Shown here: positions 52,180 through 56,933 of the stretch, piece by piece
Layout: each line of letters opens with the position of its first letter
How positions within the stretch are numbered: the stretch's first letter is position 1
From: Candidatus Onthovivens sp.
GTDB lineage: Bacteria; Bacillota_I; Bacilli_A; RFN20; CAG-826
NCBI GenBank assembly: GCA_034104285.1
Contig: JAXEEC010000056.1
Location: 84,439-148,438, forward strand
Direction: 5' to 3'
Length of the DNA: 64,000 nucleotides
Notes under the pieces: generated by a model
Database searches by the model: none
Told to the model about the DNA's origin: nothing
The model's input: the letters and a program-made list of their open reading frames with translations, nothing else
Translations under genes and position numbers: made by a program

Positions 52180-52419
52180 TTACATTTTTAATAGTTTATT
52201 CATTATCCCTTCATTATATTGAGAATCTGATATATAATAAAAGGAAGGGCAATGAGTTGCTTCAAGTTTCTTTTTTTCTATATAATTATTATATACTATA
52301 TTTATATAACAATCAATTAATTTTTCTACTTCATCATCAGAAGAACAATATTTTTTTAATGCATAAATCATTGCAATATTTTCTTCGAAATTAGGAGAAT
52401 AACTTAACGTCTCCTGCAT
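52180..52419 (-). CDS. small hypothetical protein, homolog of 59455-59700
   Basis: YALKKYCSSDDEVEKLIDCYINIV matches WLTRKYCDDSFLQESIERLFFSII. Both lie immediately downstream of a type A rSAM gene. Confidence 0.4.
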   Translation of the reverse strand: MQETLSYSPNFEENIAMIYALKKYCSSDDEVEKLIDCYINIVYNNYIEKKKLEATHCPSFYYISDSQYNEGIMNKLLKM

Positions 52420-53872
52420 TCTTTTGATGTCTAATTGTATCTGAGATTTTATCTATGAGCAATTCTCCACAATTATCAAATTGTCCTTTCATTTTTTCCA
52501 TATGTTTTTTAATTTTTTCCCAAGCATTTGCATCATTCAACTCTTTTTCAATATATGGCATTAAACCCATTATTTCATATTTCATAAATTGAAAATTAGT
52601 TTTTGCTTTAAACAAATTGCAAACTGAAATTGGTGTCCAGAATAAATCTCCAGTAGACTCAAAGTTTGACCCAAAACAAGGACCAACACACCAATATCGA
52701 ATTGCGCAATCGGGACATTGAGGAAAACTGTTACGATTCCAAGAATAAATCGCTGAAGCAATTTCCCAATTTTTGCATTTTACATTAACAATTTCATTAT
52801 TTTCTACTACATAATTACCTATTACATATTGTTCATAAGAAGTCCTATGACAAGGTACAATAGCTAAGTCACCGACTCTTACGCATAAGTTTTTTGCAAC
52901 AGAACATCCCGTACTTGCAAAATCGCACTCTGTTACTGGATTAAGAGTGTGTATAAGAAGAACGTTATCATATCCTTTTCCAGGATATTTATCACTACCT
53001 ATAACACGTTTTGCGAATAAAGCTTTATCATAATTTCCACGCGCAAACTCTTCATCAATAACATGATTTAAAAATTTAAGATAATCATTAAGTGCTTTTG
53101 GAGTCCAATTATCATCACGCACTTCTAGCATCATTAAGCGATCAGCAAGATGAGCAGGAACTTCATTACTATGCCACCAATCATAATTGTCAATCCATTT
53201 ATCAATATTAATGGCGCTTACCATTGGATGAAATGCATAAAAGTTTTTAGAAGCAAAATCTATTGCTCGCTGGTAAAATTCATCAGTACGCGAAGCATCA
53301 CCACGATTTTGATCCATAAATTTTCCATCTATTGATAAACTTATTATAAGGCGTAAATTAATATCAAAAAATTTATCAATATAAGCCTGTAATTTATCAG
53401 TTTCTTCTTGGGAATAAAGAAAATTTCCGTGGTCTGGGATCATAATACTGATAGGACGGTAAGGATTATATTTATCTTTAAACTCTTCATAAAAAACATC
53501 TAATACATCATAAATAAAACCATCTTTAAATAAATCTGATGAAAATAAAGAAAATTCTGTTCTAAAATGTTGCTTTTTATAAAAGTCCAAAAAGATTTTA
53601 ATATTTTTTAATATTTGTTCATTGGACTGTTCATTAATTGGATATAATTCTTTTCCATGGCGCTTTAAATAACAATAAGCACAATTATTTGGACAATTTC
53701 CCTTAATAAAAAGTTCAACTGCACGATAAGCAGCTGGCTTTTCTCCATCACGAAAATTTTGATAAAAATATCTTTCAAGAAAACTATTTAATAAAACGTC
53801 TCTCTCTTGTTGATTTGAATTTAAGTAAGTTAATATTTTATCTTCTGAATTCATGATATTCTCCCAATCCAT
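52391..53872 (-). CDS. radical SAM/SPASM-domain enzyme, type A (module 2)
   Basis: CPNNCAYCY. LSIDGKFMDQNRG. CPDCAIRYWCVGPCFGSNFE. Paralog of A1 and A3. Confidence 0.85.
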   Translation of the reverse strand: MDWENIMNSEDKILTYLNSNQQERDVLLNSFLERYFYQNFRDGEKPAAYRAVELFIKGNCPNNCAYCYLKRHGKELYPINEQSNEQILKNIKIFLDFYKKQHFRTEFSLFSSDLFKDGFIYDVLDVFYEEFKDKYNPYRPISIMIPDHGNFLYSQEETDKLQAYIDKFFDINLRLIISLSIDGKFMDQNRGDASRTDEFYQRAIDFASKNFYAFHPMVSAINIDKWIDNYDWWHSNEVPAHLADRLMMLEVRDDNWTPKALNDYLKFLNHVIDEEFARGNYDKALFAKRVIGSDKYPGKGYDNVLLIHTLNPVTECDFASTGCSVAKNLCVRVGDLAIVPCHRTSYEQYVIGNYVVENNEIVNVKCKNWEIASAIYSWNRNSFPQCPDCAIRYWCVGPCFGSNFESTGDLFWTPISVCNLFKAKTNFQFMKYEIMGLMPYIEKELNDANAWEKIKKHMEKMKGQFDNCGELLIDKISDTIRHQKNAGDVKLFS

Positions 53873-55184
53873 TACAATATAATTTTATTAAGCTTTCTGG
53901 AGGTGTGTAAGGGCTACCAGTTTCCCGCAAATTACTAAAATAACAAGCATTCTTTTTTACAATAAAAAGACTATGCTTAAAGCGTAAAGCTGAGTCTTTT
54001 GCATAAATAGGCGATATTTGTCGTGCCATAGCCAATTCATACATTTCAGAATTTGTAATACTTACAACAGTGTCAGCATGATATTTCCAAAACTCTTTAC
54101 GATGCCGCACTTTATTTATTAAATCGTCTAAATCAGCTTGATTATTCTCATCAGTTATAGTACCTAATTTACGAGTATTTAAAACGCGAGTATATTCTGA
54201 CGGGTCATTTTCTTTAAGCCAATTTAAATTATCTATTGACCGATCTAAAAAGCCATTTGAACAAGGAGAAAGAGTTCCATCATATCTAAATAAAAGATTA
54301 GAATTCATTTGGCCGCACTGAAAACCAGAAAATTCATAAATTTGAAGCTCACGCTCTTTTACAAAACCACTTGTTAAAAGAGGCATATTAGACGGTCGAT
54401 TATATCTTTCATCTAATTTTAATCGATCAATCTTTTGCGCAAAAGCTGAAAAATCTAAACCATCTTGAATTGTATAATTATAGGGATACTCAAGAGCTGG
54501 CCCAAAGCAAGAACCAGTACTGAAAGCAACATTTTTATTAATTACATTATCCCACATCATACTTTCGGTATTTGACCAAAAATCTAAATAATCAATTAAT
54601 CCAGAAGTGGAAGAGCATATTTCATGATAGAGATTCCAGGGGAGAGTTGATTTATAAGAAATTACAACTTTTGTTTTCTTTAATTTCTTTTTATTAAGAA
54701 TGTCAATAAAATCAATTACATCTTTTTCTAAATCTTCATAATTATAATGACGGGTTTTTTGTGATATTGCTGTTGGCCCATCTACAGAAATTTGCATTTC
54801 AAGTAGAATTCGATGCTCTGCATATTGTTCTATTAAATCAATTAAATGTAAATGTTGTTCATTGCCTGTCCGAAAATTAGTAGAATAAGCTATTTCTTCT
54901 AAACTTGGAAAAGTTAATATTAAATCTTTAAAAAAATCTGACCCATCAATAAAATGTAATGAGGTCTCTGCTCCCCAAAACTCTAATCGATAAAAATTAT
55001 TATAAGATTCATTTAAAGCGTAAAGACTACGCTTAATATTTGTTAAAAATGAACCATCTTGCATTGCTGCAATAATTTTTTTATCTTCTTCAATATAAGA
55101 TTGATTTTTATGCAAATAACAATAACTACAATTTAAATTACATTTTGCTGCACTTATAATACCTAAAACTTTTTTTTGTTCCAT
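53838..55184 (-). CDS. radical SAM/SPASM-domain enzyme, type B (module 2)
   Basis: CNLNCSYCY. FWGAETS. CGQMNSNLLFRYDGTLSPCSNGF. Paralog of B1 and B3. Confidence 0.8.
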   Translation of the reverse strand: MEQKKVLGIISAAKCNLNCSYCYLHKNQSYIEEDKKIIAAMQDGSFLTNIKRSLYALNESYNNFYRLEFWGAETSLHFIDGSDFFKDLILTFPSLEEIAYSTNFRTGNEQHLHLIDLIEQYAEHRILLEMQISVDGPTAISQKTRHYNYEDLEKDVIDFIDILNKKKLKKTKVVISYKSTLPWNLYHEICSSTSGLIDYLDFWSNTESMMWDNVINKNVAFSTGSCFGPALEYPYNYTIQDGLDFSAFAQKIDRLKLDERYNRPSNMPLLTSGFVKERELQIYEFSGFQCGQMNSNLLFRYDGTLSPCSNGFLDRSIDNLNWLKENDPSEYTRVLNTRKLGTITDENNQADLDDLINKVRHRKEFWKYHADTVVSITNSEMYELAMARQISPIYAKDSALRFKHSLFIVKKNACYFSNLRETGSPYTPPESLIKLYCNGLGEYHEFRR

Positions 55185-55189
55185 TTTAT

Positions 55190-55813: not shown

Positions 55814-55815
55814 AG

Positions 55816-56214
55816 TTAATTAATCCTTCCTCCATCAATATCAATATTCTCAACGCGCAAAGCTGTGGCGGCGTCAGCAGGATTGCCAGGGGTAGTTACA
55901 AAATAAACCATCTTTCTAATATAAGTTGAAGAATAAAGTGTAAGAGTATTATTAAGTTGAATTTCCATTGTCATATCTGGTTTGCCCTGCTTAATTTGAT
56001 GCATATAATATTCATATATTTTTAAAATTAATCCTTGCTCTTGGCTTAAATCAGCATCTTTTGAAATAACATGACTTAAATTTACCCCTTCAACGCCTGT
56101 TGTATAAACATCAGCGCGTAAAAAATAATTGTCTCCTTCAAGGTCAAAAACCTTTAAAATTTCGCCACTTTCAGAATCTTTTAAAATAACATTAAGAGTA
56201 TTCATTATATTCAT
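55816..56214 (-). CDS. hypothetical protein (module 2 accessory)
   Basis: 132 aa. Confidence 0.4.
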   Translation of the reverse strand: MNIMNTLNVILKDSESGEILKVFDLEGDNYFLRADVYTTGVEGVNLSHVISKDADLSQEQGLILKIYEYYMHQIKQGKPDMTMEIQLNNTLTLYSSTYIRKMVYFVTTPGNPADAATALRVENIDIDGGRIN

Positions 56215-56933
56215 TTTACTCCTTTATAATTACTAAAATAATTTGAAGTATAAACCATTGTACCATGAGAAGTTTGATTTTTATAATCAATTAGATTTGG
56301 ATAATAGTATAAAACCATCTTTTTAAAATCTTCCAATATACCATAAAACTTAGGGGGAATATAACAATCAGAAGAGGTAATATAAATAATATCAAAATTT
56401 TCATTAAGTAAAAAATTTAAAGTATCTTGATTTTTTAATTCAATTTCTTGTCGTTTTGGTGAAAATTGTTTTTGACCATGATAATCTGTTGAATATTTAT
56501 TTTTAATCCAAAAATACTCATCAATTAATTCATATTTGTTCAAATAAGAAACCCAAGATCCACAATTGGCCATATCATATTTATCGACTATCTCTTCCTG
56601 CTGCGGTGAATAATTAATATCATGGTGATGATCTATATTATATAAAATAAAAGGTGCTGATATTATTTTTTTATCCAGCGCATCTTTAATGGCTAAAATA
56701 ATAGAACTATGATCGTTTCCCCAATAAACTTGTTTAGGTTTTAATTTAACAACAAGTTTTTTTAATTGTTCAAGATAAATTTTATTATAAGATAAAAATT
56801 TATCGCAATGCCGTTCCTTTTCTATTTTTTCCCATAATTGTAATATTGGGACATTTCCTCTTACTAAATCATTATATAATGATATACAATCTCCTAGTAT
56901 CCAATCTAAATCTATACTTAATACTTTATTCAT
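56211..56933 (-). CDS. hypothetical protein (module 2 accessory)
   Basis: 240 aa. First gene after the promoter at 57000-57028. Confidence 0.4.
   Translation of the reverse strand: MNKVLSIDLDWILGDCISLYNDLVRGNVPILQLWEKIEKERHCDKFLSYNKIYLEQLKKLVVKLKPKQVYWGNDHSSIILAIKDALDKKIISAPFILYNIDHHHDINYSPQQEEIVDKYDMANCGSWVSYLNKYELIDEYFWIKNKYSTDYHGQKQFSPKRQEIELKNQDTLNFLLNENFDIIYITSSDCYIPPKFYGILEDFKKMVLYYYPNLIDYKNQTSHGTMVYTSNYFSNYKGVK

Follow-up and report, generated by a model that had tools for sequence, protein, structure and literature searches.

In this study, we describe three related gene modules in a 64,000-nucleotide stretch of phage DNA (positions 84,439 to 148,438 of contig JAXEEC010000056.1, GenBank assembly GCA_034104285.1, listed under Candidatus Onthovivens sp.; hereafter the window), each of which is probably a self-contained, phage-borne protein-maturation cassette. 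Every module encodes a protein of about 200 aa (P), a radical S-adenosylmethionine (SAM) enzyme (B) and a radical SAM enzyme with a SPASM domain (A). As we read them, the modules would serve the late maturation of hypervariable effector proteins, in a manner resembling that of RiPPs, peptides made by the ribosome and modified after translation. A first-pass annotation had proposed three such sets of A, B and a precursor-like protein, and all of their coordinates were confirmed on the minus strand, where they hold once the codon TAG is read as sense (Table 1). BLASTP, by which paralogy was assessed, bore out the homology proposed within both enzyme sets, with 32–45% identity among the A proteins (A1/A2 34%, 4e-72; A2/A3 45%, 6e-144) and 21–34% among the B proteins (B2/B3 34%, 4e-82; B1/B2 21%, 1.6e-17). 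P2 and P3 share 34% identity over their N-terminal 128 aa, and P1 joins the P family by profile search only.

Both enzymes belong to the radical SAM superfamily, and A is a full SPASM-domain radical SAM enzyme. The PF04055 score lies above the cut-off in B3 (39.7 bits) and below it, yet significant, in the other five A and B proteins of the window. Across 26 diverse A proteins, the CX3CX2C motif (C60/C64/C67 in A2) is invariant, as is a full seven-cysteine SPASM set (C323, C341, C386-x2-C389-x5-C395-x3-C399 and C418, A2 numbering). The SPASM signature was taken from TIGR04085, in which seven to eight C-terminal cysteines (C-x9-15-G-x4-C ... C-x2-C-x5-C-x3-C ... C) go with two auxiliary [4Fe-4S] clusters; this model gave A2 26.2 bits against a cut-off of 27 and matched 17 of the 26 members at E < 1e-3. 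PapB (23/26) and QhpD (20/26) were the models matched more often, and no curated cut-off was reached. Among the window proteins, the best scores were 60.5 bits for PapB (cut-off 340), at most 25 bits for SCIFF (cut-off 425) and, in A1, 36.9 bits for QhpD (cut-off 453), A1 also weakly matching the nif11-associated radical SAM maturase model (6e-7). The AlphaFold2 (AF2) model of A2 has a predicted local distance difference test score (pLDDT) of 86.6 and a predicted template modelling score of 0.85. By Foldseek, it resembles CteB (1e-9), TigE (4e-8), which modifies a repeat-motif peptide, ChlB (7e-8), anSME (5e-7) and also EpeE, and a sequence search of solved structures likewise includes CteB, ChlB and anSME. 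Four of these fold matches are peptide- or protein-modifying enzymes according to their PDB entry titles (ChlB according to PMC11499958).

Enzyme B is of a different build. Its CX3CX2C motif (C15/C19/C22 in B2) is invariant in 28 B sequences, in which just three further cysteines are invariant (C290, C308 and C414, B2 numbering). The C-terminal motif that had been noticed in all three B proteins was borne out, its N438-G439 being invariant in the same 28 sequences. The SPASM signature was not found in B, nor did any SPASM model match it; its PDB profile matches are confined to the radical SAM core, and N_Twi_rSAM is matched by 21 of the 28 members, below cut-off. The best profile and PDB matches of B are CteB, ChlB, anSME, PapB, twitch-domain enzymes, YhhB (26.8 bits against a cut-off of 445) and GrrM/OscB. 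B is thus predicted to have one auxiliary site and to be twitch-like, not a SPASM enzyme. The earlier proposal of two SPASM-type enzymes therefore stands for A, in which both motifs are present, but not for B, which has Cx3Cx2C only.

The arrangement of the cassette is conserved well beyond the window. In IMG/VR, 78 loci carry an A homologue, mostly on contigs of 120–200 kb, and two of them (L006 and L031) belong to the very phage of the window, of 162.5 kb. At every locus examined, the B gene immediately precedes that of A (90 A and 92 B segments from 84 sources), and it does so again at nine loci in metagenome-assembled genomes (MAGs). A P-type protein is encoded upstream of B in 72 of the 84 sources, and a profile built from one P subfamily converges on all others. 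Exhaustive profile search places the A family in 418 clusters at 50% identity (E <= 1e-30), and the 150 best A matches listed measure 378–516 aa, nearly all of them aligned across the full profile. Chance open reading frames (ORFs) were considered and rejected, since conservation of the families extends over hundreds of clusters. A search of 185,579 species genomes gave only nine A matches, all on MAG contigs with the P-B-A layout and mostly from Lachnospiraceae, Oscillospiraceae and other Firmicutes. The A family is near-absent from cellular genomes, essentially phage-only and widespread in large phages of anaerobes.

These data bear directly on whether B and A act on something other than P, be it nucleotides, DNA, a cofactor or a host protein, with P as an unrelated neighbour. 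Phages are known to use radical SAM enzymes in nucleotide chemistry, and weak viperin and MoaA profile matches occur in our searches. The viperin matches, however, span the shared radical SAM core only, every one of the top profile and fold matches is a maturase of peptides or proteins, and P-B-A synteny is near-universal over very divergent loci. We therefore regard a target other than P as highly improbable.

The cassette is real, conserved and previously undescribed, no description of it having been found in the literature on phage radical SAM/SPASM RiPPs; its kind, radical SAM maturation of ribosomal products, is already known. It departs from that kind in a protein-sized presumed substrate with a new N-domain, an obligate enzyme pair and a near-exclusive phage distribution, as well as in several diverged copies per genome, one of them within an intron. 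The first-pass annotation had singled out the triplication, which is not the core of the novelty; the cassette forms a large phage-borne family and the HXS system, a protein-effector analogue, has been published (PMC13128918). Its remark that the modules could not be placed in a known family was fair, as no known family threshold was reached.

What would be matured is a protein of two unlike parts. P reaches about 470 aa in relatives and consists of a structured N-domain of roughly 110 aa and a tail of up to 363 aa. The N-domain (100–120 aa) is marked by three units resembling [AS]SD[ILV]N..[WFY]..LN. In the AF2 model of P2, residues 10–112 form five helices (pLDDT 60–77), while the tail, residues 119–207, is disordered (pLDDT about 30) and carries NFSGH and DFSCF repeat units with five cysteines. 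As the first-pass annotation held, P is precursor-like in its conserved head and hypervariable tail, as expected of a substrate, but it is a protein of about 200 aa and not a small peptide. P1, P2 and P3, along with x132, x79, x81 and the small module 1 ORFs, had no match in Pfam, NCBIfam, PHROGs or PADLOC.

Tail statistics were drawn from 77 unique P tails, which are of low complexity and range from 32 to 363 aa (median 111). Pooled, they contain 16% S, 14% N, 11% G, 10% T, 6% Y, 5% F, 4.5% H and 3.3% C, which amounts to 51% S/N/G/T and 17% F/W/Y/H, with about 6% K+R. Cysteine is missing from 15 of the 77, and none lacks an aromatic residue or histidine. Repeat units vary by lineage (xSNGT, NFSG[HF], CSxTCS, DSSY, SNRSGH). 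Aromatic residues are spaced by three, four or five positions 193, 148 and 139 times, against 137, 110 and 90 expected from shuffled tails, in which adjacent aromatics are more frequent than in the real ones; N-x-S/T sites, at which the tails might be N-glycosylated, are in excess (z = 5.6), and the repeats inflate all such counts. Pairs of relatives indicate how fast the tails change: where N-domains are 100% identical, tails are 76–82% identical with 8–22 indel columns and indels of repeat units, and at an N-domain identity of about 79%, tail identity has fallen to about 30%. One large P subfamily retains a conserved C-terminal motif after the repeats, and some loci hold two P genes in tandem.

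Parts of P also occur in larger proteins. In L057 (6367-8154), a continuous ORF of 594 aa has a LamG lectin domain followed by a P unit at its C-terminus; in L012 (5066-6877), the P motif domain serves as linker in a tail lysin with lysozyme and M23 domains; and in L170 (5654-6502), a repeat region precedes the motif domain in one ORF. A similar LamG-P fusion in L050 was rejected, a TAG at the junction suggesting two ORFs.

Given the invariant P-B-A synteny, the maturase class of the enzymes and the combination of conserved head and hypervariable tail, P is quite likely the substrate of B and A. Its five-helix N-domain would most likely act as a leader-like docking handle, presenting a disordered tail of short repeats, each centred on an aromatic residue or histidine and in many cases also bearing cysteine. 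B, with its one auxiliary Fe-S site, and A, with its two auxiliary clusters, would act on this tail sequentially, and hydrogen-atom abstraction would yield intramolecular cross-links, namely aromatic-to-carbon C-C bonds and, where cysteine is present, C-S bonds. A floppy, low-complexity tail might in this way become a rigid, protease-resistant, multiply cross-linked polypeptide. Optional enzymes could decorate it further, x301 and x240 in module 2, and in relatives glycosyltransferases, YcaO, a ThiF-like protein or an aldo-keto reductase with ferredoxin-type cysteine motifs. Aromatic-carbon cross-links, with thioethers where there is cysteine, are our first guess at the chemistry because cysteine is dispensable and aromatic residues or histidine are universal and regularly spaced; epimerisation or chemistry at Ser, Thr or Asn are the alternatives. 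Thioether formation as the universal chemistry is ruled out by the cysteine-free tails. The product would be made late, alongside the endolysin, through TAG-gated translation, and may be an effector in phage-host or phage-phage conflict, set free when the cell lyses or exposed on the particle or the cell envelope. Such a role would account for the fast diversification of the tails, the multiple diverged copies and the mobility of the cassette.

At the level of class, the RiPP maturation proposed at first reading is supported, both by the profile matches of A and B (PapB, QhpD, SCIFF, YhhB, GrrM/OscB, anSME) and by their solved-structure matches and the fold of A2. As expected of a RiPP precursor, a ribosomally made protein with a conserved, putative recognition part and a variable one is encoded beside B and A in 72 of the 84 sources. 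The comparison with sactipeptides, ranthipeptides or streptide was too specific, given the size and structured N-domain of P and that no RRE (RiPP recognition element), conserved leader protease or exporter was found. This raises the question of whether the modules encode classical RiPPs, in which the N-domain would be a long leader that is cleaved off and the tail would give one or more small cross-linked peptides, released at lysis as bacteriocins or signals. The two-part build of P and the SPASM/twitch maturase class of the enzymes fit such a scheme, and in some relatives YcaO, a ThiF-like protein and a C39-like peptidase are encoded near the cassette. Lysis would remove the need for an exporter, and proteusins are reported to have long structured leaders (PMC10858898). 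Nevertheless, the searches gave neither a conserved protease or cleavage motif nor an RRE or transporter, tails reach 363 aa with dozens of repeats, the large P subfamily keeps its conserved motif past those repeats, and the P unit of L057 forms the C-terminal end of a continuous LamG-domain ORF. Classical peptide release is on balance somewhat unlikely.

The timing of expression is suggested by the genetic code of the phage. Almost every gene of the window lies on the minus strand, and with TAG read as sense, the minus-strand coverage by ORFs of 100 aa or more rises from 50.1 to 58.8 kb, as fragments fuse into full-length genes (B3 lengthens in this way from 209 to 420 aa). Together with an amber-suppressor tRNA with anticodon CTA, this gain bears out the TAG-recoded genome that had been proposed. 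In-frame TAG codons are found in P1, P2, P3, B1, B3, the endolysin gene, phoH exon 1, the gene at 27477-29031 and a few further genes, and in none of the primase, helicase, ligase and topoisomerase genes of the window. Recoded stop codons have been reported as a marker of late and lysis genes (PMC10607447; bioRxiv 10.1101/2021.08.26.457843). The in-frame TAG codons would make translation of P1–3, B1 and B3 dependent on the phage's own suppressor tRNA and, taken with the reported recoding of late genes, suggest that P, B1 and B3 are translated late. The endolysin gene (19335-20267, minus) has three in-frame TAG codons, matches PG_binding_1 and, weakly, NlpC/P60, and adjoins phoH exon 2.

TAG gating of this sort is also what late and structural genes show (PMC10607447), and P might instead decorate the virion or the cell surface, anchored intact to the particle by its helical N-domain, where the cross-linked and in relatives glycosylated tail would be a fibre for adhesion or shielding within the gut. 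The N-domain motif occurs in a tail-associated lysin (L012) and fused to LamG (L057), GT2-, GT4- and GT8-like glycosyltransferases (named by eye) recur beside the cassette, and the tails are rich in S, T and N with an excess of N-x-S/T. On the other hand, the modules lie among replication and auxiliary genes, one of them within a phoH intron, and the cassette looks accessory and mobile rather than like a core virion module. P had no structural match in PHROGs, and the P2 model none among viral structure models. Decoration is in our view doubtful.

Among known systems, HXS appears to be the closest published functional analogue. There, an effector of 214 aa that bears repeats is matured by two adjacent radical SAM enzymes together with a small protein (PMC13128918). 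Likeness to our cassette lies in the adjacent enzyme pair, the small partner, the radical SAM-dependent repeat effector of about 200 aa and the setting of phage conflict (PMC13128918). In contrast, HXS is bacterial, with 99.7% of its occurrences in Pseudomonadota, and the cassette is phage-borne and Firmicutes-associated; the gene order is another, and P has its own family-specific helical N-domain. Matured P could in principle work as HXS-like exclusion, blocking the entry of competitor DNA at the envelope of the infected cell, with three versions aimed at different competitors. The set of a small protein, two radical SAM enzymes and a repeat effector does parallel HxsD-HxsB-HxsC-HxsA (PMC13128918), weak HxsB and HxsC profile matches recur, and hypervariability and multiple copies suit an arms race. 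Yet both models are missed more than 10-fold in bits (HxsB 33.8 against 370, HxsC 19 against 267.9), and no HxsA or HxsD match was found in P or the small ORFs. P has no signal peptide, peptidoglycan-binding domain or basic HxS repeats, its tails holding only some 6% K+R, and PADLOC gave no match. Late expression also fits poorly, exclusion being usually an early function, and we consider this role improbable.

Maturation of P as proposed here can be set beside four further systems. In sequence and fold, A comes closest to CteB (sactipeptide/SCIFF) and PapB (ranthipeptide), and PapB-type enzymes act repeatedly on reiterated motifs within one precursor. A differs in that it has no RRE, reaches at most 60.5 bits for PapB and is paired with a second radical SAM enzyme, the obligate partner B; cysteine-free tails and missed maturase cut-offs place the cassette outside the sactipeptides and ranthipeptides. 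QhpD, second most frequent among the A-family matches, is a radical SAM/SPASM enzyme that puts several intramolecular cross-links into a protein, QhpC, which is unlike P in being a cysteine-dependent enzyme subunit and no hypervariable repeat protein. Proteusins share a long structured leader, a heavily and iteratively modified core and radical SAM tailoring, but P has no Nif11 or NHLP leader homology, and the enzymes, tail repeats and phage context are others. Triceptide synthases are SPASM-class radical SAM enzymes that cross-link an aromatic ring to C-beta on short, often reiterated aromatic-X-X motifs (PMC11499958). Of this group (ChlB, YhhB, GrrM/OscB, XyeB), ChlB is among the top PDB and fold matches of A and B, and every P tail has periodically spaced aromatic residues or histidine. 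All cut-offs of the triceptide maturase families, among which FxsB also counts, are missed, however, the precursors here are 5–10 times longer with a folded N-domain, and there are two enzymes, not one.

Several observations weigh against late maturation of P by B and A. We infer the modification of P from sequence, and late timing from the TAG-gating argument. No recognisable P lies upstream of B in 12 of the 84 sources, some of these loci being truncated, and in module 1, three unrelated ORFs part P1 from B1. The N-domain of P has no significant fold match when the P2 model, itself of moderate confidence, is compared with BFVD and PDB, and the motif and periodicity enrichments in the tails are modest and partly a product of the repeats themselves. 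Neighbourhoods hold no conserved leader protease or exporter, a C39-like peptidase occurring in one lineage only. Pfam and NCBIfam searches of A, B and the small ORFs gave no RRE/PqqD-like domain, either in A2 or stand-alone, and the N-terminus of A2 is modelled as a single helix (residues 16–41), not an RRE domain. Many radical SAM RiPP systems have no RRE, and its absence weakens RiPP membership without excluding it. The small proteins that follow A are of three kinds with no mutual relationship by hhalign, which gives no support to one common partner family of HxsD-like or RRE-like type. Finally, A and B score far under every curated cut-off, so their chemistry is not transferable from a known family.

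If maturation of P is borne out, the cassette matters in several ways. Radical SAM peptide maturation is a major source of new chemistry and has, to our knowledge, been studied almost entirely in bacteria. The families described here come with substrates pointed to by gene adjacency, which suits them to chemistry discovery, and likely stand for effectors or surface molecules of a new class in gut phages, possibly a phage counterpart to the HXS defence system. A bolder version, which we put forward tentatively, is that they form a phage-specific class of hypermodified, hypervariable effectors, in which an obligate radical SAM pair would perform undescribed cross-linking on cysteine-free aromatic/Asn/Ser/Gly repeats, the cassettes being mobile, at times intron-borne, and acting in conflict, for instance as the phage-side counterpart of HXS in anaerobic communities.

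Table 1. Features of the three modules and of the elements around them (positions in the window)
Feature	Position	Strand	Remarks
phoH exon 2	20326-20744	minus	PhoH C-terminal part: phrog_2765, PF02562
Group I intron, 3' core half	20745-20850	minus	RF00028 positions 175-253, 31.9 bits, E 6.1e-7; ends ...AATTG
A1, 461 aa	20823-22208	minus	radical SAM/SPASM; PapB 1.6e-16
x96	22218-22508	minus	small ORF between B1 and A1
B1, 441 aa	22515-23840	minus	radical SAM; one TAG
x148, x105, x63	23842-24850	minus	three small lineage-specific ORFs between P1 and B1
P1, 210 aa	24862-25494	minus	TAG at domain/tail boundary; TTYSxTS repeats and Cys cluster
Group I intron, 5' core half	25546-25733	minus	RF00028 positions 50-157, 29 bits, E 9.5e-6
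phoH exon 1	25752-26616	minus	PIN and P-loop part; 4 TAGs; ends ...CTT GGG T
Amber-suppressor tRNA	41443-41517	minus	anticodon CTA; ARAGORN
Terminator ending module 2 operon	50697-50729	minus	intrinsic hairpin
Cys-rich ORF, 190 aa	50714-51286	minus	3 TAGs; last gene of module 2 operon
x301	51262-52167	minus	U32-like putative Fe-S enzyme; invariant Cys pair C190, C194
x79	52180-52419	minus	small helical protein; overlaps A2 end
A2	52391-53872	minus	radical SAM/SPASM; CPNNCAYC
B2	53838-55184	minus	radical SAM; CNLNCSYC
P2, 207 aa	55190-55813	minus	helical N-domain at residues about 6-118; one in-frame TAG at 55676-55678; N-domain profile, AF2 model
x132	55816-56214	minus	accessory ORF
x240	56211-56933	minus	accessory; invariant N-I-D-H-H-H-D motif
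Module 2 promoter-like site	57010-57038	minus	TTGTGT-17-TGgTATAAT, extended -10; read from sequence
Terminator of upstream LPXTG-protein gene	57041-57072	minus	strong hairpin with 14-bp stem and T-run; 5' border of module 2 operon
x81	59455-59700	minus	small helical protein after A3, x79 homologue
A3, 465 aa	59621-61018	minus	radical SAM/SPASM
B3, 420 aa	60999-62261	minus	radical SAM; two in-frame TAGs
P3, 196 aa	62262-62852	minus	TAG at codon 3; Tyr-rich tail with 3 Cys
Terminator hairpin overlapping module 3 promoter	62938-62979	minus	promoter TTGACT-17-TATAAT with TG

Module 2 had been credited with a promoter and terminator of its own and with two accessory ORFs ahead of its trio. The accessory ORFs are x240 and x132, and a promoter-like site is present, which is absent from the list of the consensus scan because its -35 element fits just three of six positions. 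No terminator lies at 52391, where the module had been thought to end. From the terminator-promoter pair to the next terminator, at 50729-50697, the genes overlap or nearly abut, and given the position of that terminator, we take the operon to comprise eight genes (x240, x132, P2, B2, A2, x79, x301 and the Cys-rich ORF), reaching 1.7 kb past the coordinates first reported. Directly upstream, an ORF at 57088-57948 (minus) encodes, as read by eye, a protein that starts with a signal peptide and has at its C-terminus an LPQTG sortase motif followed by a membrane anchor. A cell-wall-anchored LPXTG protein next to module 2 is a clue that may point to a Gram-positive host. Module 3 is flanked on either side by tRNA-Ser and tRNA-Gly genes (59292-59381 and 63602-63675, minus).

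Module 1 is the cargo of a predicted group I intron in phoH. PHROG and Pfam matches place the N-terminal part of PhoH at 25750-26616 and its C-terminal part at 20326-20586; some 70 related phages have the two contiguous, always spaced by 160 nt, but here they lie 5,171 nt apart. The predicted intron (25751-20745, minus; 5,007 nt) interrupts phoH at the LG|FYPGT codon, and its cargo of 4.7 kb holds seven genes (P1, three small ORFs, B1, x96 and A1). At the identical codon, phoH of three relatives (L123, L124 and L151) is interrupted by a group I intron of 1.3 kb that encodes a LAGLIDADG endonuclease; to this intron the ends of our insert are 79% and 71% identical (the 5' end 79% over 235 nt to L123). 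The flanks of the cargo are reverse complements that would form a closing stem, exon 1 ends in U and the intron in G, and the joined exons restore ...NSARLG-F-YPGTRDEKLL.... The 3' core half overlaps the 3' end of A1. Because the cargo splits the core, each half falls under the gathering score of 50 bits, and a whole-window Rfam scan at that threshold did not find the intron, the halves being found by focused scans of the two ends. In its conserved phoH codon, homologous intron and canonical splice-site rules, this element is like other ORF-bearing group I introns of phages, which carry a single homing endonuclease gene where this one would carry a maturation cassette. A seven-gene cargo is unusual for a group I intron and is of interest for the question of how phage genomes exchange accessory modules.

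Further genes accompany the cassette in relatives, as seen by neighbourhood clustering of 55 dereplicated loci. The x301 family, whose cluster holds the window x301, is present at 17 of the 55 loci, often as pairs of tandem paralogues (for example L028 5620-7332, L029 12662-14440 and L163 9871-11699). GT2-like glycosyltransferases (nine loci), GT4-like ones (seven), a GT8-like one that also recurs next to the cassette, and an aldo-keto reductase with ferredoxin-type cysteine motifs (five) were all named by eye. YcaO (seven loci) is known from the precomputed Pfam annotation of L001-L003, and the families of x240 and of the Cys-rich ORF, each in a cluster with its window member, occur at five loci apiece. 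In L001 (9671-11470) and L004 (9697-12305 and 15397-16047), YcaO, a ThiF-like protein, glycosyltransferases and a C39-like peptidase follow the cassette. This suggests that in relatives extra tailoring is lineage-specific and proteolytic processing rare.

Peptidase_U32 is matched by four of 20 members of the x301 family, weakly (best E 6e-4), and a PDB profile search with the family found nothing; the cysteine pair is invariant. Among U32 proteins are anaerobic hydroxylases that depend on Fe-S and work in pairs, and by analogy x301 may hydroxylate anaerobically or may be a protease with the tail as its target. For x240, the Pfam family UPF0489 was matched at E 2.8e-4, below cut-off, and weakly in one of four members. 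x132 is found only in this phage and a sister phage, with hidden Markov model (HMM) matches in three loci. A small helical protein usually follows A, and an HMM of the x79/x81 type has seven homologues, all directly after A.

As for the phage itself, megablast of the window and tblastn with A2 gave no match among GenBank phages, and for a core gene, the nearest relatives with annotation come from uncultured faecal phages, at 37% identity or below. Apart from the modules, a cluster of tRNA genes (Pro, Leu, Thr, Gln, Ile) occupies 46101-47315 (minus). A topoisomerase/gyrase B-like gene is seemingly split, with its N-terminal part at 17423-18715 and a Toprim fragment at 16105-16347 (minus; translations read by eye), and the GIY-YIG-type endonuclease ORF that lies between the two parts (16480-17211) may represent another intron or homing element.

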